DNA of 64,000 nucleotides. Origin: Bacteroidota bacterium. GTDB lineage: Bacteria; Bacteroidota; Bacteroidia; J057; JAJTIE01. Both the position numbers and the translations under genes were made by a program. The notes beneath the pieces were generated by a model. That model was not told where the DNA came from. It worked only from the letters and a program-made list of their open reading frames with translations, and did not search any database. Below, one piece after another: positions 26,021 to 45,349 of this stretch; within the stretch, counting starts at the first letter, position 1, and each line of letters opens with the position of its first letter. The stretch covers positions 31,547 to 95,546 of the forward strand of contig JAJTIE010000003.1 of NCBI GenBank assembly GCA_021300195.1. The letters run 5' to 3'.

Positions 26021-26097
26021 GACTCCGTAGCTCAGTTGGCTAGAGCATCTGACTTTTAATCAGAGGGTCCTGGGTTCGAATCCCAGCGGAGTCACCA
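26021..26097 (+). tRNA. tRNA-Lys (anticodon UUU), with CCA encoded
   Basis: GACTCCGTAGCTCAGTTGGCTAGAGCATCTGACTTTTAATCAGAGGGTCCTGGGTTCGAATCCCAGCGGAGTCACCA folds as a cloverleaf. It has a 7-bp acceptor stem (GACTCCG/CGGAGTC), anticodon loop CTTTTAA and T-loop GGTTCGAATCC. Confidence 0.95.
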
Positions 26098-26294: not shown

Positions 26295-26963
26295 ATGAGG
26301 ATCTTGGTAGTAGAGGACGAGGCAGGCATAGCTGCCTTCCTGAAACAGGGGCTGGAGGAAGAAGCCTATGCCGTGGATGTATACCCCGATGGCAGGCAGG
26401 GCCTGGACATAGCCCTTAGCGGGGTGTATGACCTGCTGCTGCTAGACTGGACCCTGCCCGGGCTGAGCGGACTGGAGCTGTGCCGCAGGTTCCGAAAGGA
26501 GTTTCCGCATACGCCGGTTATTTTCCTCACAGCCCGGGATACCGTGCAAGAGGCCATCCTGGGCCTACAGTCTGGGGCGAATGATTACATCCGAAAGCCC
26601 TTCCACTTCGACGAGCTGCTCGAGCGAATTCGTGTCCAGCTGCGCCCCCAGGCTGGCGGGCACCACTGCTTCAGCCTAGGAGACATCAGCCTGGATGCCG
26701 AGGCACACCGGGTGGAGCGCGGAGGCGAAGAGATTCGGCTTACCCGCAAGGAGTTTGCCCTGCTGGAGTACCTGCTGCGAAACAAGGGACGGGTGTGCCG
26801 CCGAACCCGCATCATGGAGCAGGTGTGGGACATACACTACGAGGCCAACACAGGTGTGATAGACGTATATATTAATGCGCTGAGAAAAAAACTGGGCCTT
26901 ACCCAAGAGGATGAACGCATCCAAACCATACGGGGGGTAGGATATATGGCTGTAGAACCATGA
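26295..26963 (+). CDS. OmpR-family response regulator (CusR/CopR-like, heavy-metal type)
   Basis: REC domain (LLLDWTLPGLSGLELCRRFR) plus a winged-helix C-terminus (IQTIRGVGYMAV). It has a 4-nt overlap with the kinase gene. Confidence 0.92.
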   Translation: MRILVVEDEAGIAAFLKQGLEEEAYAVDVYPDGRQGLDIALSGVYDLLLLDWTLPGLSGLELCRRFRKEFPHTPVIFLTARDTVQEAILGLQSGANDYIRKPFHFDELLERIRVQLRPQAGGHHCFSLGDISLDAEAHRVERGGEEIRLTRKEFALLEYLLRNKGRVCRRTRIMEQVWDIHYEANTGVIDVYINALRKKLGLTQEDERIQTIRGVGYMAVEP

Positions 26964-28399
26964 GTATCCGGCTGAAAGACCGCGTGGCCCTGTACTATAT
27001 GGCCGCCACAGCCCTGCTGATGGCGCTGGCATTTGTAGCGCTCTACCTGGGTGTACGGCACGCCGTTATCCGAAACCTGGATGAGCTGCTGGCCTACGAG
27101 GCAGAGAAGCACCTGGCAGAGGTGGAAGCAGGGAGCACAGGCCTGTACTTTCGCAACCGGCAGGAGCTGGAGGAGCGAGAACACCGCGAAATCCAGACAA
27201 ACCCCATCTTCATCCAGCTGATGAGCACCAAGGGAAAGGTGATGGACAGATCGCCCAACCTGAAGGAATACTTCCTGAAACTGGACACCCTGGCACGGCA
27301 GCGCTACCGAAATGCCGAGCTGGGGCACACCGCCATACGCCAGATACAGGTGCCCGTGCTACAGCAGGGGCGGGTGCAGGGCTACCTGCTGGCGGCTCTG
27401 TCTCTGCAGTCTGCCCGATCTATCCTGCTGCAGCTGGGGCAGATACTTGTTTTGGCCTACGTGCTGCTGCTGCTGGGCTCCTACGCCGTCTCGCGCTTTC
27501 TGGCAGGCCGCAGCATCCGGCCTATACAAAAGATGACCGACACCCTCTCGCACCTTAGCCGGCAAGACCTGCAGCGGCGCGTGCCCCTGCCCGAGCACCG
27601 GGACGAGCTGTACCGGTTGGCCACCAGCTTCAATGACCTGCTAGACCGCATAGAGCAGGCTATGCAGCGCGAAAGACAATTCACCTCCGATGCCTCGCAC
27701 GAGCTGCGCACCCCCCTATCGGTACTGCGTGGCACGCTGGAGGTGCTGATACGCCGACAAAGAAGCGCTACCGACTACGAAGAAAAAATACGCTACTGCC
27801 TGGGTGAGATAGACCGAATGACCAGAATAACCGATCAGCTGCTGCTGCTGGCACGGCTGGAGCAGGGGGAAGACCTGCGGGCGGAAGCGTGGAGCGAGCT
27901 GCCCAGCCTGATAGACGAAACCCTGTGCCTGCTGCAAGCACCTATCCAGGAGAAGGGCCTACAGGTACGCTACACCCTGGCAGAGCCGGCTGTGGGCCAC
28001 CACATGGCTGTGCCGCACAGCTACACCCGCTTTATCTTGGACAATGTAATAGGTAATGCTGTAAAGTATGCCTACTCGGGCACGCCACTGACGATAGACC
28101 TGAGCCTGGCCGATACCGGCCCCGTGTGCCGCATCCAGGATGCGGGGGTAGGCATCCGCGAGGAGGACCTGAAGCAGGTGTTCGACAGCTTCTATCGGTC
28201 GGATGCGATGACAAACCGGCACATATCCGGCCATGGCCTGGGCCTGAGCGTGGTAAAGAAGTGTGCCGATGCCATAGGTGCCCGGGTAGAGATACAGAGC
28301 CGGCAGGGGCTGGGAACCACCGTGACGCTTTTTTTCACCAAATTGAACCAGGCAGATACAGGGCTTGGTGCCCATACACGAAGCCCGGAAAAGATTTAA
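26960..28399 (+). CDS. Sensor histidine kinase (CusS-like: two TM, HAMP, HisKA, HATPase)
   Basis: H-box SDASHELRTPLSVLRG and G-box GHGLGLSVVKK, with a periplasmic loop between two TM segments. Confidence 0.9.
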   Translation: MSIRLKDRVALYYMAATALLMALAFVALYLGVRHAVIRNLDELLAYEAEKHLAEVEAGSTGLYFRNRQELEEREHREIQTNPIFIQLMSTKGKVMDRSPNLKEYFLKLDTLARQRYRNAELGHTAIRQIQVPVLQQGRVQGYLLAALSLQSARSILLQLGQILVLAYVLLLLGSYAVSRFLAGRSIRPIQKMTDTLSHLSRQDLQRRVPLPEHRDELYRLATSFNDLLDRIEQAMQRERQFTSDASHELRTPLSVLRGTLEVLIRRQRSATDYEEKIRYCLGEIDRMTRITDQLLLLARLEQGEDLRAEAWSELPSLIDETLCLLQAPIQEKGLQVRYTLAEPAVGHHMAVPHSYTRFILDNVIGNAVKYAYSGTPLTIDLSLADTGPVCRIQDAGVGIREEDLKQVFDSFYRSDAMTNRHISGHGLGLSVVKKCADAIGARVEIQSRQGLGTTVTLFFTKLNQADTGLGAHTRSPEKI

Positions 28400-28477: not shown

Positions 28478-31400
28478 ATGCTAGACCAAATTATCCAATA
28501 CAGCATCCGGAACAAGCTGATCGTAGTGCTCTTCTCACTGGGCATTGTGGGCTTTGGCCTGTATGCACTCAGCGAGATACCCATAGGGGCGGTGCCCGAT
28601 GTTACCAACAATCAGGTACAGATCATCACCACCTCGCGCAACCTGGCTACCGAAGACGTAGAGAAGTTTCTGACCTACCCGGTGGAGCTGGAGATGGCCA
28701 ACCTGCCGGGTGTGAAAGAAATCCGGTCTATCTCTAAATTCGGACTCTCTGTCGTAACCGTCGTGTTCGAAGACCGGATAGGCACCTACCTGCCCCGGCA
28801 GCTGATAGCAGAGAAGATAAAGGCCGCCGAGGAAAAGATCCCGTCCGGCTTTGGCAAACCCTTCATGGGGCCTATTACCACCGGGCTGGGCGAAATCTAC
28901 CAGTATGTGATAGAGGTAGACAGCGCACACCGCAGAGACTATACGCTGAGCGACCTACGCACCATCCAAGACTGGACCATAAAGCGGCAACTAGCTGGTA
29001 TACCCGGCGTGGTGGAGGTGAACACCTGGGGGGGGCACCTGAAGCAGTATGAGGTGGCCGTAAACCCCGAGAAGCTGCGAAGCCTCGATATTTCGCTCAC
29101 ACAGGTATTTTCGGCCCTCAGCCGCAACAATAGCATTGCTGGCGGCGGGTACATAGAGAAGACCGACCAGACCTACTTTATCCGAGGCGAGGGCCTGCTA
29201 CGCACCACCGATGATATAGCGCGTATTGTAATAGAAACCCGGGCCGGCACACCGGTGCTGGTGCGCGATGTAGCCACCGTGGGCTTTGGACATGCCACCC
29301 GCTTTGGAGCTGTTACCGGCAATGGCAAGGGCGAGTACGTGCTGGGCCAAGTAATGATGCTGAAGGATGCCAACTCGAAAGCGGTGATAGAAGCCGTGAA
29401 GGCACGCGTGGCGCAGATCTCTACCTCGCTGCCCCCCGGTGTGTCCATCAACCCCTTTCTGGAGCGCAGCGAGCTGATCGGAAAAACCAGCTTCACCATC
29501 TTGGAAAACCTGATACTGGGCTGCCTCATCGTCATCTTTGTGGTTATCCTGCTGCTGGGAAACATACGGTCGGGCCTGGTGGTGGCTTCCGTTATTCCGC
29601 TCTGCCTGCTGTTTGCGCTCTCGCTCATGTACATTTTTGGCGTAGATGCCAACCTGATGAGCCTCGGAGCCATAGATTTTGGCATTATCATAGACGGTGC
29701 GGTCATCATCATCGAATACATAGCCTTCCGGATCAGCGCACAGCGTGCCAGCCTGCTGGGCCTGCCACGCGCACAGCAGCAGGCACGCATAGACGAGATT
29801 ACCCATAGCGGAGCTACCAAAATGATGCACTCTGCCGTGTTTGGCCAGGTTATCATCATACTGGTGTTTATCCCCATCCTCTCGCTGGTGGGGGTAGAGG
29901 GGAAGATGTTTCGCCCCATGGCCCTGGTCTTCTGTTTTGCTCTGCTAGGGGCTATGCTTCTGTGCTTTACCTACGTGCCGGTCATGGCCTCGCTCTTCAT
30001 CCGCCCTGCCGCATCCGAACGGGATAACCCATCGAAACGGCTGATCCGCTTTCTCGACCGCCTGTACCGGCCCTCCATCCTATGGGCGCTACGCCGAAAA
30101 GCCCTGGTGCTGGGGGCAGCAATAGGCCTGCTGCTGGGGGTGTTTTTCCTCTTCACCCGCATGGGTGGCGAGTTTGTGCCCACACTGGATGAGGGCGATT
30201 TTGTGATCCAGCCGGTGCTAAAAACCGGCACCACCCTCACAAACACAACCCACATGACTACACGAATAGAGAAAATCCTGAAACGCTTTCCCGAGGTAAA
30301 GCAGGTAGTGAGCCGCATAGGCGCTGCCGAGGTGCCCACGGACCCCATGTCGATGGAAGAGAGTGATGTGATTATCAAGCTGCTGCCTCAGTCGGAATGG
30401 ACCTCGGCCACCAGCAAGGATGCCCTGGCGGATACCTTCAAGGCAGCCCTGGCGGAAATTCCGGGTGTGGACTTTGAGTTTACGCAGCCGATCGAAATGC
30501 GCTTCAACGAGCTGATAACAGGTGTGCGGGCCGACCTGGCCATCAAGATATTCGGCGAGGACCTGGACCTGCTGTACAAAAAGGCCCTGGAGGTAGAGCA
30601 AGCCATACAGGGCATAGAGGGTGCCGCAGACATAACCGTGGAAAAGGTGGCAGGGCTGCCCCAGATATCTGTGCAGTACGACCGGCAGAAGATAGCCAAG
30701 TACGGCCTGAATGTGGAAGACCTGAACCTGCTGGTTACCTCGGGCTTTGCCGGTGCCACGGCGGGCACCCTGTTCGAGGGCGAAAAGCAGTTTGACCTTG
30801 TGCTACGCTTCGACCCCGAGCACCGCCATGGGATAGAGGATATAGAGATGGCAAGCGTGCAGCTGCCAGATGGCGGGCAGCTGCCGCTAAGTGAGCTGGC
30901 CACCGTGCGCTATAGCACCGGCCCCGCCAAAATATCGCGCGACAACACAAAGAGAAGAATCGTGATCGGGGTAAACGTGCGAAACCGCGACCTGGAATCG
31001 GTGGTGGCCGATGTGCAGCAGGCCATAGCGCGGCAGGTGGTGCTCCCCCGGGGCTATAGCATAGACTATGGGGGGCAGTTTGAGAACCTGCGCACGGCGC
31101 GGGGCCGGCTCGCGATAGCCGTACCCATTGCCCTGGTTCTCATCTTCATTCTGCTTCACTTTGCGTTTGGCTCCCTGCGCGAGGCACTGATTATCTACAG
31201 CGCCATCCCCATGTCTGCCGTAGGTGGGGTGCTGCTGCTCTACCTGCGGGATATGCCCTTTAGCATCTCGGCCGGGGTAGGCTTCATTGCCCTGTTTGGC
31301 ATTGCGGTGCTGAATGGCATTGTGCTAATCGAGGAATTCCGCGAGCTAAAGGCACATGGGGTGCATAATATCCACCGGCGCATCCTGCTGGGTACACGAA

Positions 31401-32857
31401 ACCGGCTGCGGCCCGTGCTGCTTACTGCCAGTGCTGCCGCCATGGGCTTCCTGCCCATGGCCATCTCTACCTCGGCCGGGGCCGAGGTGCAGCGCCCACT
31501 GGCCACTGTGGTAGTAGGTGGCCTGGTATCGGCCACCCTGCTTACCCTCATTGTGCTGCCGGTGCTCTATGCTGTTTTCGACCAACGCGCAAAAAAGAAA
31601 AAACTGCTAGCCCCGCATAGTCTACCCGTGCTAGCTGCCCTGCTACTGGGCCTGGGCCTGGTGCTGCCCACAGGCACGGCACGTGCCCAGCAAACGGCTG
31701 CACCTGTAGCCGCGCATCGGGCCATCTCGGTAGAGCAGGCCATAGAGATCGCCCTGCAGCGCAATGCCGGCCTGGGCGCATCGGCCCAGCGGGCAAATCT
31801 GGGCCAGCAGCTAGTAGGCACCGGCATAGACATCGGAAAGACCGAGATCTACTACGGCCGAGACGAGAACAACATAGCCCCAAACAACCTGCCACTAAAT
31901 GTGTGGGGCATCAACCAGGCCCTACAGTTCCCCACCGTGTACGGTGCCCAGCAGCGGGCGCTGCGGGCACAGGCCACCCTGGCGCAAGACCGCTATGCCA
32001 TAGACCGGCAGCGCCTGCAGAAGGAGGTGACCTGGGCCTACTATGAGGTAGTGTACTGGGAGCAGATGCAGCGGCAGTACCGCCTGCTAGACAGCATCTA
32101 CCAAAGCTTTCGACAGGGGGCCGACCGCAGGCAGGCAGCAGGAGAAACCAACTACCTGGAGCAGCTAACGGCCCAAACCAAGGCCGACCAGGTGCACGTG
32201 CAGCTGCTGCAGATCCGGCAGAATGTACAAGGTGCCTACAGCCGCCTGCAGCAGTGGATGCAGGCAGACACCGCCTACCGGGTGCAAGACACCGCCCTGG
32301 TGCGCCTGCTACCCACACCCATAGATAGCCTGACGCATCCGGTGCTGGCCTACTACCAGGATGCCATCCTGGCAAGCCAGGCGCAGTGGAAGCTGGCGCG
32401 CCAGCGGCTACTGCCCGACCTAAACCTAACCGCCTTCTACGGCACCAACAATGGAACCGGCAGGCAGGGCTACTCCGGCTTTCAGGTAGGCCTGGCGGTG
32501 CCCCTGTGGTTTGGTGCCCAGAAGGCCCGAATCGCCTCGACCCGTACGGAGCAGACTGTCCTGCAGCTGCAGAACGAAGACTACCGCCGGCAGCTGCTGG
32601 CCCGCTATGAAGCCCTGCTGGCCGAGCGCACCCGGCACGAGCAGCAGCTGGATTTCTACAAAAACACCGGCAAAGCCCTGGTGCACCAAACGCGCCTGCA
32701 CGCAGGAGCTGCCTTCCGGGCCGGCGAGATAGACTACCTGGAATTCGTGCAGCTGCAAGAGCGTGCTGCCGAACTGGAGTTCTCCTACCTCACGTCCCTG
32801 TATCAATACAACCGGGCTGTGCTGGATGCCAACTATTTGATTGACTTTTTACCATGA
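28478..32857 (+). CDS. CzcA/CusA-type heavy-metal RND efflux pump fused in frame to a CzcC/TolC-family outer-membrane factor
   Basis: 1459-aa continuous ORF. Residues 1 to about 1040 have the RND architecture (MLDQIIQYSIRNKLIVV..., two large periplasmic loops, 12-TM pattern). Next comes KKKK plus the hydrophobic LLAPHSLPVLAALLLGLGLVLPTGTARA. Residues from about 1075 to 1459 are OMF-like (ISVEQAIEIALQRN, ETNYLEQLTAQ, GEIDYLEFVQLQ). Confidence 0.85.
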   Translation: MLDQIIQYSIRNKLIVVLFSLGIVGFGLYALSEIPIGAVPDVTNNQVQIITTSRNLATEDVEKFLTYPVELEMANLPGVKEIRSISKFGLSVVTVVFEDRIGTYLPRQLIAEKIKAAEEKIPSGFGKPFMGPITTGLGEIYQYVIEVDSAHRRDYTLSDLRTIQDWTIKRQLAGIPGVVEVNTWGGHLKQYEVAVNPEKLRSLDISLTQVFSALSRNNSIAGGGYIEKTDQTYFIRGEGLLRTTDDIARIVIETRAGTPVLVRDVATVGFGHATRFGAVTGNGKGEYVLGQVMMLKDANSKAVIEAVKARVAQISTSLPPGVSINPFLERSELIGKTSFTILENLILGCLIVIFVVILLLGNIRSGLVVASVIPLCLLFALSLMYIFGVDANLMSLGAIDFGIIIDGAVIIIEYIAFRISAQRASLLGLPRAQQQARIDEITHSGATKMMHSAVFGQVIIILVFIPILSLVGVEGKMFRPMALVFCFALLGAMLLCFTYVPVMASLFIRPAASERDNPSKRLIRFLDRLYRPSILWALRRKALVLGAAIGLLLGVFFLFTRMGGEFVPTLDEGDFVIQPVLKTGTTLTNTTHMTTRIEKILKRFPEVKQVVSRIGAAEVPTDPMSMEESDVIIKLLPQSEWTSATSKDALADTFKAALAEIPGVDFEFTQPIEMRFNELITGVRADLAIKIFGEDLDLLYKKALEVEQAIQGIEGAADITVEKVAGLPQISVQYDRQKIAKYGLNVEDLNLLVTSGFAGATAGTLFEGEKQFDLVLRFDPEHRHGIEDIEMASVQLPDGGQLPLSELATVRYSTGPAKISRDNTKRRIVIGVNVRNRDLESVVADVQQAIARQVVLPRGYSIDYGGQFENLRTARGRLAIAVPIALVLIFILLHFAFGSLREALIIYSAIPMSAVGGVLLLYLRDMPFSISAGVGFIALFGIAVLNGIVLIEEFRELKAHGVHNIHRRILLGTRNRLRPVLLTASAAAMGFLPMAISTSAGAEVQRPLATVVVGGLVSATLLTLIVLPVLYAVFDQRAKKKKLLAPHSLPVLAALLLGLGLVLPTGTARAQQTAAPVAAHRAISVEQAIEIALQRNAGLGASAQRANLGQQLVGTGIDIGKTEIYYGRDENNIAPNNLPLNVWGINQALQFPTVYGAQQRALRAQATLAQDRYAIDRQRLQKEVTWAYYEVVYWEQMQRQYRLLDSIYQSFRQGADRRQAAGETNYLEQLTAQTKADQVHVQLLQIRQNVQGAYSRLQQWMQADTAYRVQDTALVRLLPTPIDSLTHPVLAYYQDAILASQAQWKLARQRLLPDLNLTAFYGTNNGTGRQGYSGFQVGLAVPLWFGAQKARIASTRTEQTVLQLQNEDYRRQLLARYEALLAERTRHEQQLDFYKNTGKALVHQTRLHAGAAFRAGEIDYLEFVQLQERAAELEFSYLTSLYQYNRAVLDANYLIDFLP

Positions 32858-34008
32858 AAATGCTTCCCATAAAACCTGCAACCCTACTCCTGTGCGGGCT
32901 GCTGCTAGCCGCATGCAGCTCGGGCACAGACTCTGCCAGCTCCGATGCAAAGAGTAAGGCTGCTGCCGTACCGGCTACGGTAAAGCTTACGGCCCGGCAG
33001 TTTGCATCCTCGGGCATGGCCCTGGGTAAGATAGAACCGCATGACTTCCGGCAAGTGGTGCGAGCAAATGGCGTACTGGATGTGCCGCCAGACCGGCGCG
33101 TAACCATTAGCTCCTACTTTGGCGGCACGGTGCGAGATATACCCAAACTGGAGGGCCAGTATGTGCGGCATGGCGAGGTGCTGCTCTCGCTAGAGAGTCC
33201 GGAGTTTGTGCAGATCCAGCAGGACTACCTGGAGGCGCAGGGCAGGCTAACGTATCTGAAATCGGACTATGAGCGACAAAAGGAGCTGGTAAAGGACAAA
33301 GTAACCTCCGAAAAAACGTATCTGAAGGCAGAATCAGACTACGCCGTAACCCGGGTACAGGTGGCCTCGCTGGCCAAAAAACTTAGCCTCATGAACATAG
33401 ACCCCTCCGGACTTAGCGCAGAAAAATTGCAGAGCGTAATCTACATGCGGGCGCCCATCAGCGGATACATTACCCGGATAGACGTAAACCGGGGCGACTT
33501 CCTGAACGCCGCCGCCGCCGGCATACAGATGGTGAACACCGAGCACCTGCACCTGGAACTCAATGTATTCGAGAAAGACCTGCCCAAGATACAGGAGGGG
33601 CAGGCCATCCAGTTCAGCATTCAGCAGGACCCAGGCACTACCTACAGGGCCACCGTGCACCTGGTGAATAAGGCCATAGACCCGAAGACCCGTACCATAC
33701 GCGTGCACGGGCACCTGGCAGATGCAGCGGCAGCACGCTTCAGCCCAGGCATGTATGTAGAGGCCGCTATCTCTACGGTATCTACCTCCAGGCCCGCCCT
33801 GCCCGCAGATGCAGTAGTGGCGCTAGGCAGCAGGAAGTATGTGCTGATGGCAGCGGGCCAGCCAGATAGCACCGGAACCCTGCTGAAGCGGGTGGAAGTA
33901 GAGACTGGCCTGGCCGACGAGGAGGCCATAGAGATAAAGAACGCCAACACCCTGCCCGCAGGTGCACAGTACCTGGTGCGGGGTGCCTTCGGGCTGATAA
34001 ACGAGTAG
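32854..34008 (+). CDS. Efflux RND periplasmic adaptor (CzcB/CusB, HlyD family) lipoprotein
   Basis: Lipobox LLLAAC, a coiled-coil hairpin region and beta-barrel domain pattern. It has an ATGA overlap with the preceding ORF. Confidence 0.88.
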   Translation: MKMLPIKPATLLLCGLLLAACSSGTDSASSDAKSKAAAVPATVKLTARQFASSGMALGKIEPHDFRQVVRANGVLDVPPDRRVTISSYFGGTVRDIPKLEGQYVRHGEVLLSLESPEFVQIQQDYLEAQGRLTYLKSDYERQKELVKDKVTSEKTYLKAESDYAVTRVQVASLAKKLSLMNIDPSGLSAEKLQSVIYMRAPISGYITRIDVNRGDFLNAAAAGIQMVNTEHLHLELNVFEKDLPKIQEGQAIQFSIQQDPGTTYRATVHLVNKAIDPKTRTIRVHGHLADAAAARFSPGMYVEAAISTVSTSRPALPADAVVALGSRKYVLMAAGQPDSTGTLLKRVEVETGLADEEAIEIKNANTLPAGAQYLVRGAFGLINE

Positions 34009-34084: not shown

Positions 34085-36352
34085 ATGAAGTCTGGTCAAG
34101 TCTTGCTACGCCTTGCAGGCCTGCTGGCTAGCCTGATGCCTGTGGCCCCCGGGCTACAGGCGCAGGAGCTGAAGCTGATGCACAGCCGATCGGTATACCT
34201 GCGCTACAGCAATACTGAGCAGGGGGCTGGCAGTAGCGCTGAACCCTATCTGGACTTTGAAAACATCAACAAAATCCCCTATTACACGGACAAAGACAGC
34301 CGAAACCGAATACAGGACCTGACCCAGGAAGCAGCCACCAACTACCCGGAACTACAGCAAGAAATGCTGGACTATGTGCTGAAGTTTGGGATACAAAACT
34401 TTGGCCAGCAGTACGACCTGGACCTGATATGGCAGCTGGGCCAGCTGCACGAGCTGCAGCAAGACACCACTACCGCCATGCTGCTATACAGCATAGCCCT
34501 AAACAACCACAGCCAGCACTACCCACAGGTACGCAAGTACTACGAGGCCCTGTACGCCCCCGCCCACAGCGAGTGGGTAGACCTGGACTACTACTACCGG
34601 GTGGTGGAGGCACGCCGAAAGATAGACACCCTGATTCCGCCCCGGAAGGTATTGCTGCGCCTGGATAGCACCATCAACGCCGTGAACAAGCCGGACTATG
34701 CCCCCTACATGCACCCCTACGGCGATGTGCTGATCTACACCAGCCGCCGTAGCGAGCTGGACCTGGTAGCCGGGCCAGACGCACAGCCGGCCGAGGACCT
34801 GTACTACAGCCTGCCCGACCCCGTTACGGGCAAGTGGACCCCGAGCGAGCGATTCTCCGACAACATAAATTCGGCCTACAATGAGGGGTCGGCCTGCCTG
34901 AACCAGGAGGGCATCCAGCTCATCTTCAGCCGCTGCAATGCACCCGATGGCCTGGGCCTGTGCGACCTGTACATAAGCAGCTGGAAGAATGGCACCTGGA
35001 CGCAGGCCGTAAACCTGGGGCCTAACGTAAACAGCCCCGACTGGGACAGCCACCCCTGCCTGAGCCCCGACGGACGCATACTATACTTTGTGAGCAACCG
35101 GGGGGGCGGCTTTGGCCGTACGGACATCTGGATGTGCCGCCGAAACAAAGACGGCAGCTTTCAACCTGCCGAAAACCTGGGCCCCGTGGTAAACACCATC
35201 GAGGATGAGGTAACGCCCTTTTTGCACCCCATCAATGAGACCCTGTACTTTAGCAGCACCGGGCACCTGCATGGCAATGGCGGCTTCGACATATACAAAA
35301 CCCGCCAGGCAAACCGCCAGTGGGAGCAGCCCCGAAACCTGGGCCCCCTGGTGAACGGCCCGCAGGATGAGTACTATTTCTCCATCGACCGGAAGGGAGA
35401 AAACCTGTTCTACGCCCGTTCGAGCGAGCAAAACGCCCGCGATTTCGACATCTACTCCTTCCCCATGCCCATGGAGGCCAGGCCCGATGCCGTATACAAG
35501 CTGAAAGGCTACCTGATAGACAGCCTTACCCAAAAGCCCATAAACGGCATTGTGGTGGCCATAGACCTGGATAAGGGGGTAGAAATAGCCCCCGTACATA
35601 TTAATAGCACCGGCTACTTCGAGTTCAACCTGGTGAACAACCGGCAGTACCAGCTGCTCATCCTGGGCGAGAATGCCTTCCGGATAGAAGACCAAAGCGG
35701 CCTGAGCCAAGACAGTGTCTTCGCCATCCTGGAGCAAAGCATTCTCCACCTGAAGCCCGTTGTATTCGGCCAGCTTACCTTTGCGGCAGACGATGCGGGC
35801 ATCAACCCCGTGGTGAAGGAGAAGCTGGCCCCCCTGGTGGAATTTCTGAAGCGGCACCCGGGCAGTAGGCTGGAGATACGGGGCCACACCGACAGCGACG
35901 GGAAACCTGGCTACAACCTGAAACTGAGCCGAGAGCGGGCCCAGAACATAAAAACCTACCTGATAGAGCAAACAGGCATGCCCGACCTGAAGATAGCGGC
36001 CCAGGGCTATGGAGACACGCGCCCCGTATTCCCCAATGATAGCCCTGCCCACAAGGCACGAAACCGGCGGGTAGAGTTCGAAATCTTCCTGCCCGAGGCG
36101 GAACGCCAAAACATCCTGCGCAGGCACCAGCCACCCGTGCAGCTGAGCCTGAACCCCCAGGCGCTGGACACCCTGCCCGATGACCAGCTACGCAAGTACG
36201 AAGAAGAAATACTGAACGAGGGGCTGGATGACCTGGAAGCGCAGCTGGAAGCACAGACGGAAGACCCCCTGCCGGTGCCCGACGAACCTGCATTCCGGTT
36301 TATGAAACCCGAACTGGAGGCACCACGGGAAACCGAACCAAACGAAAAATGA
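34085..36352 (+). CDS. PorE-like protein: TPR-like N-terminus, TolB-type (PD40) beta-propeller, carboxypeptidase-regulatory-like domain and OmpA_C peptidoglycan-binding domain
   Basis: Signal peptide, then PD40-like repeats (PCLSPDGRILYFVSNRGGGFGRTDIW, LYFSSTG...GGFDIYKT, LFYARS...DFDIYSF). A CRD-like segment follows (LKGYLIDSLTQKPINGIVVAIDL). The OmpA motif is RLEIRGHTDSDGKPGYNLKLSRERAQ...NRRVEFEI. The last ~100 aa form an acidic C-terminal tail. Confidence 0.7.
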   Translation: MKSGQVLLRLAGLLASLMPVAPGLQAQELKLMHSRSVYLRYSNTEQGAGSSAEPYLDFENINKIPYYTDKDSRNRIQDLTQEAATNYPELQQEMLDYVLKFGIQNFGQQYDLDLIWQLGQLHELQQDTTTAMLLYSIALNNHSQHYPQVRKYYEALYAPAHSEWVDLDYYYRVVEARRKIDTLIPPRKVLLRLDSTINAVNKPDYAPYMHPYGDVLIYTSRRSELDLVAGPDAQPAEDLYYSLPDPVTGKWTPSERFSDNINSAYNEGSACLNQEGIQLIFSRCNAPDGLGLCDLYISSWKNGTWTQAVNLGPNVNSPDWDSHPCLSPDGRILYFVSNRGGGFGRTDIWMCRRNKDGSFQPAENLGPVVNTIEDEVTPFLHPINETLYFSSTGHLHGNGGFDIYKTRQANRQWEQPRNLGPLVNGPQDEYYFSIDRKGENLFYARSSEQNARDFDIYSFPMPMEARPDAVYKLKGYLIDSLTQKPINGIVVAIDLDKGVEIAPVHINSTGYFEFNLVNNRQYQLLILGENAFRIEDQSGLSQDSVFAILEQSILHLKPVVFGQLTFAADDAGINPVVKEKLAPLVEFLKRHPGSRLEIRGHTDSDGKPGYNLKLSRERAQNIKTYLIEQTGMPDLKIAAQGYGDTRPVFPNDSPAHKARNRRVEFEIFLPEAERQNILRRHQPPVQLSLNPQALDTLPDDQLRKYEEEILNEGLDDLEAQLEAQTEDPLPVPDEPAFRFMKPELEAPRETEPNEK

Positions 36353-36552: not shown

Positions 36553-39500
36553 ATGAGAATTCACCAAGTAGCTTGCTCCCTGCTATTCGTGGCGGTCCTC
36601 TTTTGCCTTGGGGCTCGTTCCGCATCGGCCCAGATACCGTGGACCGAGAACTTTAACGATGCAGGTGCGACAGCACGCTGGATAACCCAGGATGCGCCTG
36701 GTTCCAAAACCAACCCCACTCCGGGGGGCATCAGCGGGCTGGTGTACAACACTGCGGCAGGTGTGCTTACCAATGGCGTGTATCCAAACTACTGGATCAT
36801 CAACAACCGGAATGCCTCAGACCCAGCTACCCGCACCAGCCAGGGCCAGCTGCGTGGGGCTAACTGTGGCGGGGCAGGCACCAACAATAGCCTGCACATA
36901 ACTCACCCAGCCACGGACCCCGGCATAGTGAACCGGCCTTTTAGCGACCTGCTGCAAGAGCCAGTAGACGGGGGAGATGCCTACTGGCCCCTGTCGGCCT
37001 CCAGCGGCAGCGAAACCGTGGACAACTCCGCATCTTCCGACCAGATTGCCTACCTGAATCCGACCAGTGCCATCAGCACCGTAGGGGCCAAGAACCTGAT
37101 CCTCAGTTTCGATGCCTTTATCTATGCGGATCTGGATCTACTGGGAGAACAACCCCTTACAAGCCAATCTGTTGTAGGATCGAGAGACGGTGGGACCACC
37201 TGGGTGGTAATCGCAGAAGACCTGGAGCAAATTTGGGTCCAACAAGGCCCCAACTGTGCTTCGGGCTGGCGGCGCATCAGCCTGGGCCTGCCTGCGGCCT
37301 TGTACAACAGTAGCAACGTGATTATTGGGTTCCGGTGGCGGAACAGGGGACTACTAGGCTCCATTGACGCACGCAACTTTTCGCCCCAGGCCGGTGGATT
37401 CAACGTAGACAACCTGCGCATAGAGGAAGGGGCTGACCCGGTGCTGGCATCGGCACAAGACATTGTTTCCCCCTGTAAAAACCAGACCCAAACCTTCTCT
37501 AACACCACCAATACTCTGGTTCGGGGCATTACCTACCGCTGGGACGTATCGCCCACCGGAAACTTCACGGTGGTAGCGGGGCAGGCGAATACCAACCTGG
37601 TGGACAACTTTGGCAACCTGCGGCTCCGCTTTACGGCCAATGGTACCTACAATGTGGTACTGCGCGGCACCACGGCCACTGGCCAGGTGCTTAGCCCGGT
37701 TAGCTATACGGTAACGGTAGCCAACTGCCCGCCAGATGTAGACTTTACCACCGCACAGATATCTCAGGTAGTCTGTTCCACCTCGCCCTCCCCCGTTAAC
37801 GGCAGCAGTACACGCATCAAGTTCAAAAACCTCACTACCTCTTTCCCTGCACTAGGCACCTATAGCTGGAACATACCCGATGCTGTGTATGTAAACGGGA
37901 CCAATGCCAATAGCCCGGAGCCCGAAGTAGAGTTTAGCACCGTGGGTGCCAAAACCGTAAGCCTGACGGTAACCAACGCCGAGGGCAACGCCACCGAAAC
38001 CAAAAACAACTACATAGACGTGCGGGACTGCCAGTGCGAGCTGATTACTACTCCAAGCAACGTAACCCTGCTGAACGAGAATTTCCAGACAAATAATACG
38101 AATGCCCTCTTGACTGGCGGGGGATGGCAGTTTACGGATGTAGCATTCAATACTGGTCAGTTTTCTGGCACACATGCCTGGCAAGTGAACAGCGATTATG
38201 GGCCAACGTCCATTGGGGCTGGTGGTATAGCACTGTGCTTTGCACTTGGCACAAATACGACTCCGAACCAGCCAATGGCCATTACGGGTGCACCGCAAAG
38301 CAACTACCTGCATGTAACGGCACCCGGTCTGACAGCCGGTGCTGGATTTTGCTTCACGGGTTCTGGCCAGAACGCACTTCACTTCACTACCACACCCGGG
38401 CAGAACATACGGGCACGCACGCCCCTACTAGATGCCACGGGGTTGACCAATATTCAGATTGATTTTCAATACTTGGCCTGCGATGCCACAAATGCAAGGG
38501 TTCGCTACCTAAACCAAACGGGCACCCAGATAGGTGCAACGGTAAATCTGGCAACAGCCGCTACCTGGACTGCAAGAAATATAGCTGCAGCGGCACTAGA
38601 CGGACAGATATTCCGGGTAGAGTTTGAATGGAACACGACATCGGCCTGTGGCCCGGCTTTTTCCATAGACGAGCTGCTTATCCGCAGCGTAACCGGTGGT
38701 GCGGCAGGCCCCGCTACCTTTGTGTGCCCGGTGCCCACCACCCTCTGCCCCGGCCAAACCTTTACGGTGCCCTTCAATGCCGCCGGTACCTGGGCTGCCG
38801 GAAACAACTTCCTGGTGCAGCTGTCTAACGCCAGCGGTTCCTTTGGCTCCCCTACCCAGATAGGCAGCCTGAACAACCAGGTGGGCACCAACCTTACTGG
38901 GCTGAATGCCACCGTTACCATCCCTGCTGGCCTGGGTGCAGGCACGGGCTACCGCATCCGGGTGGTGGGTAGTGCACCACAGGGCGGCGCCCAGACCAAC
39001 AATGACAATGGCAGCAACATAACGGTGGCACTCCGCCCCGCTGCCAAGGCCGTTAGTGGGCCCACGAGTGTATGTGTGGGCAGCCTGGCCCAAACCTACA
39101 GCATCCCGGCGGGCAGCACCTCCTCCTACACCTGGGGTGTGACTACCGGTGTGGAGGGTACCGACTGGGAGATCGTAAGCGGCCAGGGCACCAACAGCCT
39201 GCGGATCCGCTGGATAACTACCTCCAACCGCACCCTGCGCGTAACCGAGAGCAACAGCTGCGGAGACCGGGTGAATGACCTGGCAGTGGCTGTTACCGGT
39301 GGGCCGGTGATACCCGACCTGCAGACGGGCGATGTGGCGGTGTGTATCAACACCTCGGACACCTATGCCGTGCCTGCCGACCCCAGCATCGTAACCTGGG
39401 AGTGGACTGCCACAAACGGCACCATCACGGGCCCCAATAACACCAATAGCGTAAACGTAACCTGGGCGGCTACCCCCGGCCCGGCATCGCTGCGCCTGCG

Positions 39501-41358
39501 TGCCGTAAACAGCTGCACCGAAACCGTCCGCACCTATAGCGTGGATATCAGCAGTGGTGCACCCACCGGCCCCTTTACGCTATCGGGCCCCGCCAACCCC
39601 TGTAGCAACCAGATCTTCAACATCATTGCCACACCCAGCACAGGCTTCACCTACGACTGGGAGGTGAATGGCCCCGGCCTGGGCGGCTTTACCGATGTGG
39701 AGGATGCCGTAACGGCAGGCGTAGCCACCGTACAGGGATCCACAAACAGTGGCCTGCTGTCCATTGCCTTCGTAAATGCAGGCACCTATGAGGTGCGCCT
39801 GAATGTGGACAACGGCTGTGCCCCGCTGAACAATGCCGCCAACGGCACCTATACGGTGCTGGCTGGGCCCACGCCAACCCTCACCAGCAACGGTGGCACG
39901 GCACCTATTACGTACTGCCAGGCCGACAACACCACCAATTTTGCGGTTACGTTTAGCCCTTCGACTGGCGTGGTGGTAGATAGATGGGAGCTGAGCCTGG
40001 ATGGAGGCAGCACCTACACCACAGTGCCGAGTAGCGCTACCCTAACCAGCCTCACGGTGAATGACATAGGCGAAGCGCGACGCTACCGCGTGCGGTACAA
40101 CGCTGGCCTGTGTACAGACCTGCTGGCCAATGCCCCGCTGATAGACTTTGAGCCCCTGCCCAACCCGCAGGCCAGCGTACCCACAGAGGTGCAGAGCGGT
40201 GAGAGCATCACCACCGCTACCGTAACGGCGCCCACTACAGGCACAGGCCCCTTCGAGGTATACTTCCGCCCCACCGGGGGGGCCGATACCCTGAGTAACA
40301 GCCTGAATGAATTCCCCAGAATTCCCTCTCCGGGGGGCACTATCACCCTCCCACCCTTCAGCTACACCACCAGTGTAGACGGAACCAACTTCATCTACAG
40401 CCTGAGCATGCGAGACCTGGGTAGCCCAGACCGATGCGAGACCGATGTGATAGGCCAAACCGTGCTGGTGCGCGTGCTGGGCCTGGGTGCACCGGTGGCA
40501 GACAAGGCGACCTACTGCACAGACGAGCTAGTCCGCATCAGCTTCACCGCACAGGGCACCTACGACCCCGGAAACCAGTTCTCCGTAGAGGTGATTAACA
40601 ACTTGGGTACCACCGTGGCTACCCTGGCTAATGTAACCAGCCCTGCTACCCTAAACCTGCGGACAGCCGGTATCCGTGGCGGCGTGTACAACCTGCGTGT
40701 GCGCTCCAGCTCGCCTGTCCGCTCCGCCGACGGTACAATCAGCTTTACGGTATTGAATCTTCCGGATCCCGTATTTGAGCTGCGCGATGAGAATGGACAG
40801 GCCAGCACGGTGTTTCTCAAGGTGAATGACTTTGTGCAGGTAAACGGCCCCTTCTATACCGGTACTACCAACATAGGTAACCCCAACATCAACTGCCGAT
40901 GGGTGATCCAGCATCCGCTGGGGAATGTGGTATGCGAGGAGTGCGATTTCCTGGCCAACTGCGTACTGCCCCCCTACACCGGCCCCGAGGGACCGCGCAC
41001 CTACACCGCCATCCTGGTGATGGACAACCAGGGCTGTGAAAGCTCAGACACCCTGCTCTTTGAGGTGCGCCCGGATGTTACGCCCATTGGCCTGCCCACC
41101 TTCTTCTCGCCCAACAAGGATGGCGTAAACGATGTGTTCCAGGTAGATCCCACCCGGTTCCAGTCCTTTACACTCGAGATCTTCAGCCGAAACGGACAGA
41201 TGGTATTCTCCACTGGCCTGAATGGATTTAAGGCTTGGGATGGCACCTTTGATGGCGGAGGCGATGCGCCAGAGGGCGTGTACTTCGTTCACTTCAAGGG
41301 AGTAGACCAGTTTGGAAAATCCTTCGATAAAACATCCACGCTAACGCTGCTCCGCTAG
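36553..41358 (+). CDS. Large (1601 aa) cell-surface adhesin-like protein with Ig/PKD-like repeats and a T9SS type B (gliding-motility-associated, CHU_C) C-terminal domain
   Basis: Signal peptide (LFVAVLFCLGARSASAQ) and many Cys-bracketed Ig-like modules. The C-terminus PTFFSPNKDGVNDVFQV...LEIFSRNGQMVFST...WDGTFDGGGDAPEGVYFVHF matches the type B CTD pattern. Confidence 0.85.
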   Translation: MRIHQVACSLLFVAVLFCLGARSASAQIPWTENFNDAGATARWITQDAPGSKTNPTPGGISGLVYNTAAGVLTNGVYPNYWIINNRNASDPATRTSQGQLRGANCGGAGTNNSLHITHPATDPGIVNRPFSDLLQEPVDGGDAYWPLSASSGSETVDNSASSDQIAYLNPTSAISTVGAKNLILSFDAFIYADLDLLGEQPLTSQSVVGSRDGGTTWVVIAEDLEQIWVQQGPNCASGWRRISLGLPAALYNSSNVIIGFRWRNRGLLGSIDARNFSPQAGGFNVDNLRIEEGADPVLASAQDIVSPCKNQTQTFSNTTNTLVRGITYRWDVSPTGNFTVVAGQANTNLVDNFGNLRLRFTANGTYNVVLRGTTATGQVLSPVSYTVTVANCPPDVDFTTAQISQVVCSTSPSPVNGSSTRIKFKNLTTSFPALGTYSWNIPDAVYVNGTNANSPEPEVEFSTVGAKTVSLTVTNAEGNATETKNNYIDVRDCQCELITTPSNVTLLNENFQTNNTNALLTGGGWQFTDVAFNTGQFSGTHAWQVNSDYGPTSIGAGGIALCFALGTNTTPNQPMAITGAPQSNYLHVTAPGLTAGAGFCFTGSGQNALHFTTTPGQNIRARTPLLDATGLTNIQIDFQYLACDATNARVRYLNQTGTQIGATVNLATAATWTARNIAAAALDGQIFRVEFEWNTTSACGPAFSIDELLIRSVTGGAAGPATFVCPVPTTLCPGQTFTVPFNAAGTWAAGNNFLVQLSNASGSFGSPTQIGSLNNQVGTNLTGLNATVTIPAGLGAGTGYRIRVVGSAPQGGAQTNNDNGSNITVALRPAAKAVSGPTSVCVGSLAQTYSIPAGSTSSYTWGVTTGVEGTDWEIVSGQGTNSLRIRWITTSNRTLRVTESNSCGDRVNDLAVAVTGGPVIPDLQTGDVAVCINTSDTYAVPADPSIVTWEWTATNGTITGPNNTNSVNVTWAATPGPASLRLRAVNSCTETVRTYSVDISSGAPTGPFTLSGPANPCSNQIFNIIATPSTGFTYDWEVNGPGLGGFTDVEDAVTAGVATVQGSTNSGLLSIAFVNAGTYEVRLNVDNGCAPLNNAANGTYTVLAGPTPTLTSNGGTAPITYCQADNTTNFAVTFSPSTGVVVDRWELSLDGGSTYTTVPSSATLTSLTVNDIGEARRYRVRYNAGLCTDLLANAPLIDFEPLPNPQASVPTEVQSGESITTATVTAPTTGTGPFEVYFRPTGGADTLSNSLNEFPRIPSPGGTITLPPFSYTTSVDGTNFIYSLSMRDLGSPDRCETDVIGQTVLVRVLGLGAPVADKATYCTDELVRISFTAQGTYDPGNQFSVEVINNLGTTVATLANVTSPATLNLRTAGIRGGVYNLRVRSSSPVRSADGTISFTVLNLPDPVFELRDENGQASTVFLKVNDFVQVNGPFYTGTTNIGNPNINCRWVIQHPLGNVVCEECDFLANCVLPPYTGPEGPRTYTAILVMDNQGCESSDTLLFEVRPDVTPIGLPTFFSPNKDGVNDVFQVDPTRFQSFTLEIFSRNGQMVFSTGLNGFKAWDGTFDGGGDAPEGVYFVHFKGVDQFGKSFDKTSTLTLLR

Positions 41359-43054: not shown

Positions 43055-45247
43055 TTAGCGGATAAAGAGGATCTCGCGATACTTGGGCAGCTGCCACAGG
43101 CTGTCGTCCACCAGGTTCTCCAGCTGGTCGGCATGCTGGCGTATACGGTCGTATAGGGGCTTTACTTGTTCAGCAAAGGTATGCGCCTGTTTGAAGGTAT
43201 CCGGCTCGGCATTCGCCTGTGCACGTACTGCACGCATTTCGGCTATCAGCTTGCGTATGGCAGAGATGTGGCTGCTTATCTCGCGTGCCTGTTCCTTCAG
43301 TTCATCGGCCTCCGTACTCAGGCCCATTTCCTTCAGTCCGCGGTAGGTATCGGCCAGCTGTTTCTGATAGCGCTGGGCACTGGCCACTATGTGCGTATTG
43401 GCCAGCTCCTCGGCCAGCAGGCTCTCTATCTCCACTTTTTTGATATAGTGGTCCAGTTTGATCTCGGCCCGCGCGTGCAGCTCGCTTTCGGCCAGCACCT
43501 TGGTGGCACCAAATACCGCTACGCTCTTTGGGCTGATGTAGGCCTCCTGGGCTTCTGCGGCGTTTCGTATGGTTTTCAGGCCCCGGCTTTGGGCTATCTG
43601 TAGCCATTCTTCGCTGTAGTTGTCTCCGTTGAAAATAATCGCCTTGCTGGCCTCGTAGGTGCGGCGTAGCTCGGCTATCAGGGCAGCTTCCTTCGCCTCG
43701 CCCTGGGCTATGCGCTGGTCTACCGCCACACGGAACTGCTGCAGCTGGTGGGCCACAATGGTATTGAGCACAATCATGGGCTCGCTGGTATTGGCACTGC
43801 TGCCGCAGGCGCGAAACTCAAACTTGTTGCCCGTGAAGGGGAAGGGGGAGGTTCGGTTTCGGTCGGTATTATCTCGCTCCAGGCTGGGTACGGCAGGCAT
43901 ATCCATGGGCATCTTGCTCTTGTTTGCCTTGCTGCTATCTGCCTCCAGCCCCTGTGCCATAAAGGCCTCCAGCACCTCCTGGATCTGCTGGCCGGTGAAT
44001 ACACTAATGATGGCCGGTGGAGCCTCGTTGGCACCTAGTCTGTACTCATTGCCCGCACTGGTGATGCTGGCCAGCAGCAGATCGGCATGCTGGTATACGG
44101 CGTGTATGGTATTGATGAAGAAGGTGAGGAACTGCAGGTTGCCCATGGGGTCTTTGCCCGGACTTAGCAGGTTTACGCCTGTATCGGTGGCCAGGCTCCA
44201 GTTGTTGTGCTTTCCACTGCCATTTATGCCGGCAAAGGGTTTTTCGTGCAGCAGTGCCCGCAGGCCGTTTCGGCGGGCTACGCGGTCTAGCACATCCATC
44301 AGCAGCTGGTTGTGGTCTACGGCCGTATTCACGTCTTCAAAGTGGGGGGCACACTCAAACTGGCTGGGTGCCACCTCGTTGTGGCGGGTTTTTACGGGGA
44401 TGCCCAGTTTGTAGCACTCAGTTTCAAAGTCTACCATAAAGTCCAGCACCCGCTCGGGGATGCTGCCAAAGTAGTGGTCCTCTAGCTGCTGGCCGCGGGC
44501 TGCAGGCAGGCCAAAGAGGGTGCGGCCAGTCATCACCAGGTCTGGCCGGTTGTTGTAGAACTTTTCGTCTATGATAAAATACTCTTGCTCCCAGCCCAGG
44601 GTGGCCGTTACGCGCTGCACCCGGGGGTCGAAGTACTGAGCTACGGCCGTGGCTGCCTTGTCCACACGGTCCAGGCTCTTTAGCAGCGGGGTTTTGAAGT
44701 CGAGCGCCTCGCCGGTGTAGCTGATGAAAATAGACGGGATGCAGAGGGTACGGCTCTTGCCCGTCTCCATGAGGAATGCGGGGCTAGAGGGGTCCCAGGC
44801 GGTGTAGCCGCGTGCCTCAAAGGTATTGCGCAGGCCCCCGCTGGTAAAGCTGCTGGCATCGGGCTCTTGCTGGATCAGGCTCTCTACACTAAAGCGCTCA
44901 ATGGCCTGGGTATTATTGCCCGAGGTAAGGAAGCTGTCATGCTTCTCGGCTACCTGGCCGGTGAGTGGCTGAAACCAGTGTGTATAGTGGGTTGCCCCTC
45001 GGTCCATGGCCCAGTTCTTTAGGCCCAGGGCTACCTGCTCTGCCACCTCATGGCTCACATTGGTGCCTTTTTCGATGGCATTTACTACACTCTGGTAGGC
45101 CTCCTGGCTCAGGTACTCCTTCATGGCAGGCCGGTCGAACACATTCTTGCCAAACAACTTGGAGATGCGGGTCTCTTCGGCCAGGCCCAGGGTCTGGCCG
45201 GCAGATTTTACTTTGCGGGTAATAGAGTCGATGATACTGCTACGCAT
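43055..45247 (-). CDS. glnN: Glutamine synthetase type III
   Basis: About 730 aa when started at MRSSIIDSIT (ATG complement 45245-45247). GSIII-like N-terminus (ISKLFGKNVFDRPAMKEYLSQEAY) and a catalytic core with NGSGKHNNWS. Confidence 0.9.
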   Translation of the reverse strand: MRSSIIDSITRKVKSAGQTLGLAEETRISKLFGKNVFDRPAMKEYLSQEAYQSVVNAIEKGTNVSHEVAEQVALGLKNWAMDRGATHYTHWFQPLTGQVAEKHDSFLTSGNNTQAIERFSVESLIQQEPDASSFTSGGLRNTFEARGYTAWDPSSPAFLMETGKSRTLCIPSIFISYTGEALDFKTPLLKSLDRVDKAATAVAQYFDPRVQRVTATLGWEQEYFIIDEKFYNNRPDLVMTGRTLFGLPAARGQQLEDHYFGSIPERVLDFMVDFETECYKLGIPVKTRHNEVAPSQFECAPHFEDVNTAVDHNQLLMDVLDRVARRNGLRALLHEKPFAGINGSGKHNNWSLATDTGVNLLSPGKDPMGNLQFLTFFINTIHAVYQHADLLLASITSAGNEYRLGANEAPPAIISVFTGQQIQEVLEAFMAQGLEADSSKANKSKMPMDMPAVPSLERDNTDRNRTSPFPFTGNKFEFRACGSSANTSEPMIVLNTIVAHQLQQFRVAVDQRIAQGEAKEAALIAELRRTYEASKAIIFNGDNYSEEWLQIAQSRGLKTIRNAAEAQEAYISPKSVAVFGATKVLAESELHARAEIKLDHYIKKVEIESLLAEELANTHIVASAQRYQKQLADTYRGLKEMGLSTEADELKEQAREISSHISAIRKLIAEMRAVRAQANAEPDTFKQAHTFAEQVKPLYDRIRQHADQLENLVDDSLWQLPKYREILFIR

Positions 45248-45349
45248 GGCTACAGGAAAAAAAGAATGGGCGGATAAACCTGGCGCGAATATCGGCAATT
45301 CGAGTCTATTCGCATCGCTTGCGCACAATAATACCGGAGGAAATGGAGC

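Follow-up and report, generated by a model that had tools for sequence, protein, structure and literature searches.

A conserved fusion of a CzcA-type efflux pump with a TolC-type channel in Bacteroidota, with a probable internal signal peptide at its junction

The heavy-metal efflux systems CzcCBA, CusCBA and ZneCAB are built from a CusA/CzcA-family pump of the resistance-nodulation-division (RND) class, an outer-membrane factor (OMF) with the TolC/CusC fold and a CzcB/CusB-like periplasmic adaptor, with pump and OMF encoded by separate genes. The C-terminus of an RND pump is cytoplasmic. The barrel of the OMF sits in the outer membrane, and from the dimensions of TolC and AcrB the N-terminal region of the OMF is separated by over 100 Å from the inner membrane. 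We have analyzed a stretch of 64,000 nucleotides from the metagenome-assembled genome of a freshwater Bacteroidota bacterium (assembly GCA_021300195.1, contig JAJTIE010000003.1, positions 31,547 to 95,546; termed the window below) that encodes the same three components. Here, however, pump and OMF lie within a single open reading frame (ORF) of 1459 amino acids, and the predicted signal peptide of the OMF is internal to it.

An arrangement of this kind is reportedly found in the FbcH cytochrome b/c1 polyprotein of Bradyrhizobium japonicum, where an internal signal peptide is said to be cut. In that system a partner that faces the periplasm is reportedly attached, by way of its own signal peptide, to a polytopic inner-membrane protein whose C-terminus is cytoplasmic, and a post-translational cut yields the two subunits at 1:1, as we propose for the pump-OMF fusion. 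The two families are unrelated, and the partner released from FbcH reportedly stays anchored in the inner membrane, whereas the OMF must reach the outer membrane and its cleavage is predicted. With these differences FbcH is the nearest mechanistic analogue known to us. A second comparison is with the signal peptidase I substrates of Bacteroidetes that follow the 'Q-rule', in which Gln is exposed at position +1 (PMC5837995).

A preliminary description of this DNA had drawn attention to the nucleotides at the junction, where an A6-G-A6 tract is followed by a stop codon in each alternative frame and then by an in-frame GTG and a signal peptide, and it had proposed an assembly artefact, a recent fusion by a single-nucleotide indel or a slippage-controlled switch between fused and separate products. 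Our analysis gives a simpler picture. The locus belongs to a conserved family of fusions, in which it is an ordinary case, and its junction is best explained by an internal, probably cleaved signal peptide. We estimate a probability of about 0.7 that the CzcA-type pump and the TolC-type channel are made as one polyprotein that is cut by signal peptidase I after Ala1070, as judged from sequence conservation and geometry.

Pump, channel and the segment that joins them

In its N-terminal part the protein is a complete pump. The Pfam family ACR_tran matches residues 5-1034 in one stretch, covering profile positions 1-1020 out of 1021, and the NCBIfam model for CusA and CzcA (TIGR00914) gives 1138.7 bits over residues 1-1042, compared with a cut-off of 701.45. 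Every multidrug RND model of NCBIfam scores below its own cut-off for the fusion protein. The nearest solved structures are ZneA (4k0e, E = 7e-195) and CusA (3k07, E = 6e-180), with alignment from end to end. Taken with the coverage of ACR_tran, this indicates that the RND architecture of 12 transmembrane (TM) helices and two large periplasmic loops is present in full length. The stretch of the pump that would correspond to TM4 reads AIDFGIIIDGAVIIIEY. Compared with the charged proton-relay motif of CzcA, D...D...E in 'DFG-DGA-VEN', both Asp residues and the Glu are present, and the Asn is replaced by Tyr.

The C-terminal part matches the Pfam family OEP in two stretches, with 75.8 bits against a cut-off of 22. 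Pfam thus gives ACR_tran followed by OEP, and for that reason the junction is one between RND pump and OMF, as it had first been described. The NCBIfam model for TolC responds weakly to the OMF part (24-28 bits, with a cut-off of 225), and a phmmer search of the PDB with the OMF domain found no match at E ≤ 0.01. Since the C-terminal residues, about 390 in number, are too divergent for a sequence match in the PDB, the fold was assigned from an AlphaFold2 (AF2) model and a Foldseek search. The model, calculated with 41 sequences, has a mean predicted local distance difference test (pLDDT) score of 85.6, and the OMF comprises two repeats, each with two strands and long helices. Foldseek matches it to TolC, SilC, CmeC, CusC and OprM, with E values of 1e-15 to 1e-18 and template modelling scores of 0.64-0.70. 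CusC and OprM have a lipobox Cys; the OMF of the window has none, and carries instead a signal peptidase I-type site with Gln at +1. The efflux operon contains no further gene for an OMF.

The nucleotides of the junction read GCA AAA AAG AAA AAA CTG CTA GCC CCG CAT AGT CTA CCC GTG. The elements that had been picked out here are all found where they were placed. Two runs of six A lie at 31591-31596 and 31598-31603, on either side of G31597. There is a TAG at 31608-31610 in the +1 frame and another at 31618-31620 in the +2 (that is, the -1) frame, and the GTG at 31628 is in frame with the ORF and forms codon V1051. The signal-peptide anatomy beyond it, LAALLLGLGLVLPTGTARA/QQ with an A-x-A motif ending at 31687 (a slash marks the predicted cut), is also borne out. 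In the reading frame of the protein the A6-G-A6 tract is AAA AAG AAA AAA, i.e., four Lys codons. The presence of three AAA among four Lys codons is unremarkable, because AAA makes up 37% of the Lys codons of the window (232 AAA compared with 387 AAG). From the protein anatomy described next, the tract is the n-region of a putative signal peptide, spelled in Lys codons.

In the window the elements of this signal peptide are an n-region KKKK, an h-region LPVLAALLLGLGLVL and a cut site T-A-R-A/Q-Q, with the residues across the predicted cut after Ala1070 reading LLAPHSLPVLAALLLGLGLVLPTGTAR-AQQ. The same elements recur in a set of 120 homologues. The linker, whose sequence is not conserved, has a net charge of +1 to +7 (median +3), and an uncharged run comes after it, 18 residues long at the median. 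Position -1 is Ser, Gly or Ala in 114 of the 120 and position -3 is Gly, Ser or Ala in 109, while position +1, Q1071 in the window, is Gln in 117. The AF2 model has a helix at model residues 2-23, corresponding to TM12 (residues 1017-1038), a linker of low pLDDT, a short helix at model residues 31-45 (residues 1046-1060) and a disordered cleavage region before the OMF fold begins. What is conserved is the anatomy of the protein, comprising a basic cytoplasmic linker, a short hydrophobic stretch and a small-x-small motif with Gln, and not the nucleotides.

In its positive n-region, its short h-region, its A-x-A at -3 and -1 and its Gln at +1 the segment resembles the substrates that follow the Q-rule. 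It differs from them in location. Their signal peptides are N-terminal, whereas this one occupies residues 1039-1070, behind a 12-TM pump of 1037 residues. It therefore looks like an internal signal peptide that would act as one, while not being a canonical member of the class.

Conservation of the fusion and its split relatives

The length of the A tract is real and is not an artefact. Contigs from the Logan collection, assembled from 12 freshwater metagenome runs in 11 studies, cover positions 31450-31750 without a gap and with one substitution at the most. Runs X7 and X8, from different studies and samples, give an identical contig of 927 nt at a depth of 17.4, with the same longest record, and may be one dataset deposited twice, so that the independent confirmations are perhaps 11 runs and not 12. 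The protein cluster at 90% identity has eight members, drawn from NCBI, JGI, ENA and Logan, all of which carry AKKKKLLAPHSLPV, and five of them (including that of the window) are full-length proteins of 1459 amino acids. This cluster is made up of sequences from the same species that differ by 0-3 substitutions; the next relatives are found at 72% identity, with none in between.

The fusion extends far beyond this species. The best 119 full-length homologues have 1438-1488 amino acids, and align over 100% of the protein with 68-72% identity; their many genera belong to the Cytophagales, Flavobacteriales, Saprospirales and other orders. When the pump domain alone was used as query, which lets split pumps compete on equal terms, the best 119 relatives (78-82% identity) were all fused. 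We also took 80 loci from a collection with one genome per species, including Bacteroidales, Chitinophagales (Niabella) and Marinilabiliales, and in all 80 there was a single in-frame tblastn match running through the junction. On these comparisons the fusion gene is genuine, ancient and stably inherited in Bacteroidota.

The fused homologues share the architecture of the window protein along its whole length, with the same linker, hydrophobic segment and small-x-small/Q junction. The window protein is 17 residues longer than most (1459 compared with about 1442), which is accounted for by about five extra residues in the linker (the LLAPHS region, 31604-31627) and some 9-10 Ala- and Pro-rich residues beyond the predicted cut (QQTAAPVAAHR, 31688-31720), as judged against the 119 fused homologues. 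Its KKKK linker also differs from the GHFPKVKVP-type linker that is common among them.

The linker sequence varies freely among the fused homologues, and the A tract, whose conservation had been suggested as a check, is not kept among the 80 loci. A run of at least six A is present in 15 of them, mostly in AT-rich genomes, and an in-register A_AAA_AAG in three, each time at other positions. Stop codons soon after the linker in the alternative frames are the rule, the median distance being 22 nt for the +1 and 8 nt for the -1 frame. One homologue of 1488 amino acids (P0072) carries an insert of about 45 residues of low complexity, rich in Gly, Gln, Ser and Pro (GGGGGGQGGGSKG...QSGGPQSGGPQSGGP...), in the linker between TM12 and the hydrophobic segment, from which we conclude that the linker tolerates large insertions. 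One locus in the set (L050), on a contig of 3065 bp in a metagenome-assembled genome (MAG) labelled Candidatus Peregrinibacteria, has a typical fused junction of the Bacteroidales type that is near-identical to that of a locus from Bacteroidota (L046). It is probably a binning contaminant and not a gene of the candidate phyla radiation.

Split relatives do exist. A search with the OMF part against 1.8 billion cluster representatives gave 2456 matches, and among the best 150 of these, OMFs of about 400 amino acids with an ordinary N-terminal signal peptide stand beside fused proteins and fragments of such proteins. In 48 of the 51 OMFs that look to be stand-alone, Ala, Gly or Ser followed by Gln lies right behind the hydrophobic run, a position matching that of the predicted cut in the fused proteins. 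We checked the genome context of four of them (L081, L083, L084 and L085). L081 (GCA_047514455.1) has precisely the gene order of the operon in the window, with a response regulator, a histidine kinase, an RND pump of 1040 amino acids, an OMF of 401 amino acids and an adaptor of the membrane fusion protein (MFP) family, and its pump is 73% identical to that of the window. The pump and the OMF are separate genes, unlike the single ORF here. The L081 pump ends in FDKKETK, and its stop codon overlaps the start of the OMF gene (ATGA), the product of which begins MKKQLQTLSMLIALMGFVVFTHA/QN. The OMFs of about 400 amino acids in split operons start with MKKQLQ...FTHA/QN and similar sequences. L084 (TGAtATG) and L085 (an overlap of 8 nt) are split too, with the order RND-OMF-MFP retained and the genes in different frames. 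The conventional arrangement suggested for this locus is therefore real, but it is that of other lineages.

Comparison of the two forms suggests that the fused junction is the tail of a pump welded to the signal peptide of an OMF. Topology permits such a weld, as both of the joined ends lie in the cytoplasm, and the fusion would be viable because the channel's own signal peptide has been kept as an internal and probably cleaved element.

The fourth stand-alone OMF is a different case. The 397-residue protein called on the contig of L083 (positions 1-1322 of a 1.3-kb contig; P0129) is the end of a fused ORF. Its frame is open to the start of the contig (VLPVLYAYFDRKGRGRGRKRK-MKALMVLL), and the gene call had wrongly placed the start at an internal ATG. 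Where contigs are short, gene callers can thus take the OMF end of a fused ORF for a stand-alone gene, which calls for caution. Since one of the four calls checked was wrong, stand-alone calls on short contigs were judged unreliable.

Proposed processing of the fusion protein and alternative explanations

We propose the following course of events. The whole protein would be inserted by the Sec/YidC machinery, with KKKK serving as a positively charged cytoplasmic n-region and the h-region LPVLAALLLGLGLVL entering the membrane as a 13th span, N-in/C-out. Signal peptidase I would then cut after Ala1070 at T-A-R-A/Q-Q and free the OMF into the periplasm, from where it would assemble into the outer membrane, its N-terminal Gln probably being cyclized. 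The pump would retain the signal peptide as an extra C-terminal helix. A single translation event would in this way supply pump and channel in a 1:1 ratio, as needed for a 3:3 assembly, and the A tract, the TAG codons in the alternative frames and the in-frame GTG would be incidental outcomes of Lys, Leu and Val codons, not a recoding device. The distance from the hydrophobic span to the first element of secondary structure in the OMF is about 17 residues here and about nine fewer in most homologues. With the dimensions given above, such a tether is too short to span the distance from the inner membrane to the OMF, and cleavage would therefore be needed for function.

Extending this to the whole family, we lean toward the view that the fused CzcA-OMF proteins of Bacteroidota are true polyproteins, providing a phylum-wide route to an obligatory 1:1 output in which the used signal peptide becomes a permanent 13th TM helix. 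If cleavage occurs as proposed, these proteins offer a clean natural case of the processing by signal peptidase of a polyprotein that combines a polytopic membrane protein with an outer-membrane protein. It would also explain how a phylum without translational coupling based on Shine-Dalgarno (SD) sequences imposes a 1:1 stoichiometry. As speculation, weak coupling of this kind might have favored the fusion in Bacteroidota. It is more speculative still that in some species the ratio is adjusted by low-level -1 frameshifting where the linker has runs of Lys codons.

Several points weigh against this proposal. The processing is deduced from sequence conservation and geometry, and a signal peptide placed behind 12 TM helices is unusual for a substrate of signal peptidase I. 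No description of natural RND-OMF fusions or of their processing was found in the searchable literature. Logan contigs drop rare variants, so that the reproducible tract length is that of the main form and minor indels would be invisible, and in three very small metatranscriptomes, taken from these samples or this study, no contig lay on the operon. The linker also contains a perfect in-register A_AAA_AAG, from which some frameshifted product may arise.

Were the fusion left uncleaved, the product would be a single 13-TM polypeptide with its OMF domain tethered to the inner membrane. The internal position of the signal-like segment and the helix predicted there by AF2 would fit a stable TM span. 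However, with the dimensions of TolC and AcrB as a guide, the tether is far too short to let the OMF barrel extend to the outer membrane. The h-region is short, as in a signal peptide, and the stand-alone homologues appear to be ordinary OMFs with cleavable signal peptides. Moreover, the small residues at -3 and -1 and the Gln at +1, which are the signature of the Q-rule (PMC5837995), are kept in more than 90% of the 120 homologues, and this counts against the uncleaved form because nothing would oblige a plain anchor to preserve them. We therefore regard it as unlikely. Slightly less likely again is dual expression, with translation of the fusion and, besides it, an OMF made from an internal start, either GTG 31628 or some other codon in frame. 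In 72 of 81 junctions there is an ATG, GTG or TTG in frame, some fused lineages have retained a Met and a basic n-region (KNK-MKLKKIFFF in L019 and RKRK-MKALMVLL in L083), and initiation in Bacteroidota does not need an SD sequence. Yet such codons are expected by chance in hydrophobic segments rich in Leu, Val and Met, and they occupy no conserved position. GTG 31628 has an unremarkable context, with four A in positions -20 to -1 compared with a mean of 5.2 at real starts, and a product started there would be without a charged n-region.

A shift of reading frame at the linker is more improbable than either of these. By a -1 ribosomal frameshift at A_AAA_AAG, or by transcriptional slippage, translation would yield a 12-TM pump ending in AKKEKTASPA, with the OMF made separately from GTG 31628. 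A change of one nucleotide in the tract does indeed make the pump terminate shortly afterwards, as translation of the frames shows. Of the two frameshift C-termini given earlier, AKKEKTASPA is right for an insertion of A or a -1 shift, the product being ...DQRAKKEKTASPA followed by a stop; RKKRKNC is slightly off, and deletion of an A leads to DQRAKRKNC or DQRAKKKNC. The heptamer is in the correct register, the stop of the -1 frame (TAG 31618) follows seven codons on, and the resulting pump tail would look like the FDKKETK and FDKNKNKL tails of split pumps. AAA-AAA and AAA-AAG sites can be intrinsically shifty in Escherichia coli even without designed stimulators (PMC1851650). Compared with a dnaX-type -1 site, the window has the identical heptamer in register and a -1 frame that ends soon after, but neither a stimulatory downstream structure nor an SD-like element nor conservation of the site. 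The 87 nt from 31604 to 31690 fold no better than shuffled sequences (z = 0.16, with 110 of 200 shuffles as good), no SD-like stimulator was seen upstream, and the genes of the window are generally without SD motifs. As described above, the motif is rare and displaced among the fused loci, within a linker that varies freely. The two runs of six A, split by a G, are below the length of about 9 nt from which transcriptional slippage at A or T runs matters in many bacteria (PMC1088944). There are six in-frame A_AAA_AAN heptamers in the window, in six of its 42 ORFs, and as five of these are other, ordinary genes the one at the junction is not special. An OMF started at GTG 31628 would also be unlike all true stand-alone relatives, which begin with charged n-regions (MKK..., MKR..., MSRFR...), and frameshifting would upset the 1:1 output of pump and OMF with no evident benefit. 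Of the positions in this ORF, 1.3% have stop codons this near in both alternative frames, which makes them locally uncommon; the value is uncorrected and post hoc, and the features of the junction exceed chance only weakly. Incidental low-level -1 frameshifting at A_AAA_AAG is possible.

There is next to no chance that an error of assembly or sequencing, or a very recent indel of one nucleotide, has joined two genes. Homopolymers are classic sites of indel errors, and split and fused relatives do differ by reading frame, as in the ATGA overlap of L081. Both suggestions are nevertheless refuted by the data. The artefact is contradicted by the gap-free coverage in all the metagenome runs and by the occurrence of the same protein in several independent MAG or contig depositions; the recent indel, by the fused state of the best 119 RND relatives and of all 80 genome loci, and by a region of linker and signal peptide that aligns with that of the fused homologues. 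Of the outcomes considered in the preliminary description the evidence thus favors a plain fusion, to which we would add that a post-translational cut at the signal-peptide site is most likely. For the 'slippery' junction the result is a deflationary one, leaving an ordinary run of Lys codons in a long-established fusion gene. The annotation at the locus needs no correction, and there is no evidence of recoding. More broadly, in a large family of metal-efflux pumps from Bacteroidota one polypeptide comprises both the pump and its outer-membrane channel.

The palindrome GCTAGC occurs twice near the junction, at 31606-31611 and 31630-31635, 18 nt apart, each copy giving a TAG in the +1 frame. 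We considered the pair as a stimulatory hairpin. The two copies do pair in the minimum-energy fold, but we rejected this candidate as the fold is no better than those of shuffled sequences. We likewise rejected the idea that TAG 31618 and GTG 31628 are relics of a split ancestor specific to this lineage. The nearest relatives are fused and their linkers can be aligned, and the OMF of such an ancestor, starting at GTG 31628, would have had no charged n-region.

The operon and its surroundings

The coordinates of the operon and of the elements at the junction are collected in Table 1. The TGA that ends the fusion gene and the ATG of the adaptor gene share bases (ATGA).

Table 1. Features of the efflux operon and of the pump-OMF junction (positions in the window)
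Feature	Position	Strand	Basis and remarks
OmpR-type response regulator (first in the operon)	26295..26963	+	Pfam Response_reg and Trans_reg_C; same slot in L081
Sensor histidine kinase, HAMP-HisKA-HATPase_c	26960..28399	+	Pfam; overlaps the regulator gene by 4 nt; same slot in L081 and L082
CzcA/CusA-type RND pump and TolC-type OMF in a single ORF of 1459 aa	28478..32857	+	ORF list; Pfam ACR_tran and OEP; TIGR00914
RND pump domain, aa 1-1037, with TM12 at its end (...LIVLPVLYAVFDQR)	28478..31588	+	ACR_tran; structure matches
Basic cytoplasmic linker AKKKKLLAPHSLP, aa 1038-1050, putative n-region; holds A6-G-A6 (31591-31603)	31589..31627	+	Sequence; pLDDT low
A_AAA_AAG heptamer in dnaX -1 register	31591..31597	+	Register check; -1 product ...DQRAKK/EKTASPA-stop (slash at the shift); probably incidental
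Pair of out-of-frame TAG codons	31608..31620	+	Sequence
h-region and c-region VLAALLLGLGLVLPTGTARA, aa 1051-1070; proposed 13th TM and internal signal peptide, predicted cut 31687/31688	31628..31687	+	
Predicted mature OMF, aa 1071-1459, N-terminal Gln	31688..32854	+	Pfam OEP; AF2; Foldseek
Periplasmic adaptor, CzcB/CusB-type MFP	32854..34008	+	HlyD_D23 (Pfam); TIGR01730 (NCBIfam); CCATGAAA

Directly downstream of the efflux operon, at 34085-36352 on the plus strand, lies a gene for a protein of 755 amino acids with PD40 (WD40-like β-propeller) and OmpA peptidoglycan-binding domains. The same neighbor is found in L082 and is absent from the split operon of L081. About 200 nt upstream of the two-component and efflux genes there is a tRNA-Lys(UUU) at 26021-26097 (plus strand), and a tRNA-Ser(GGA) is located at 48736-48825 (minus strand). 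Two further proteins encoded in the window are probable cargo of type IX secretion and, together with the glutamine synthetase named below, fit an origin in the Bacteroidota. One is a PKD-repeat protein of 1601 amino acids with a CHU_C sorting domain (36553-41358, plus strand), and the other a protein of 582 amino acids with a Por_Secre_tail domain (14294-16042, plus strand). A type III glutamine synthetase is encoded at 43055-45328 on the minus strand.

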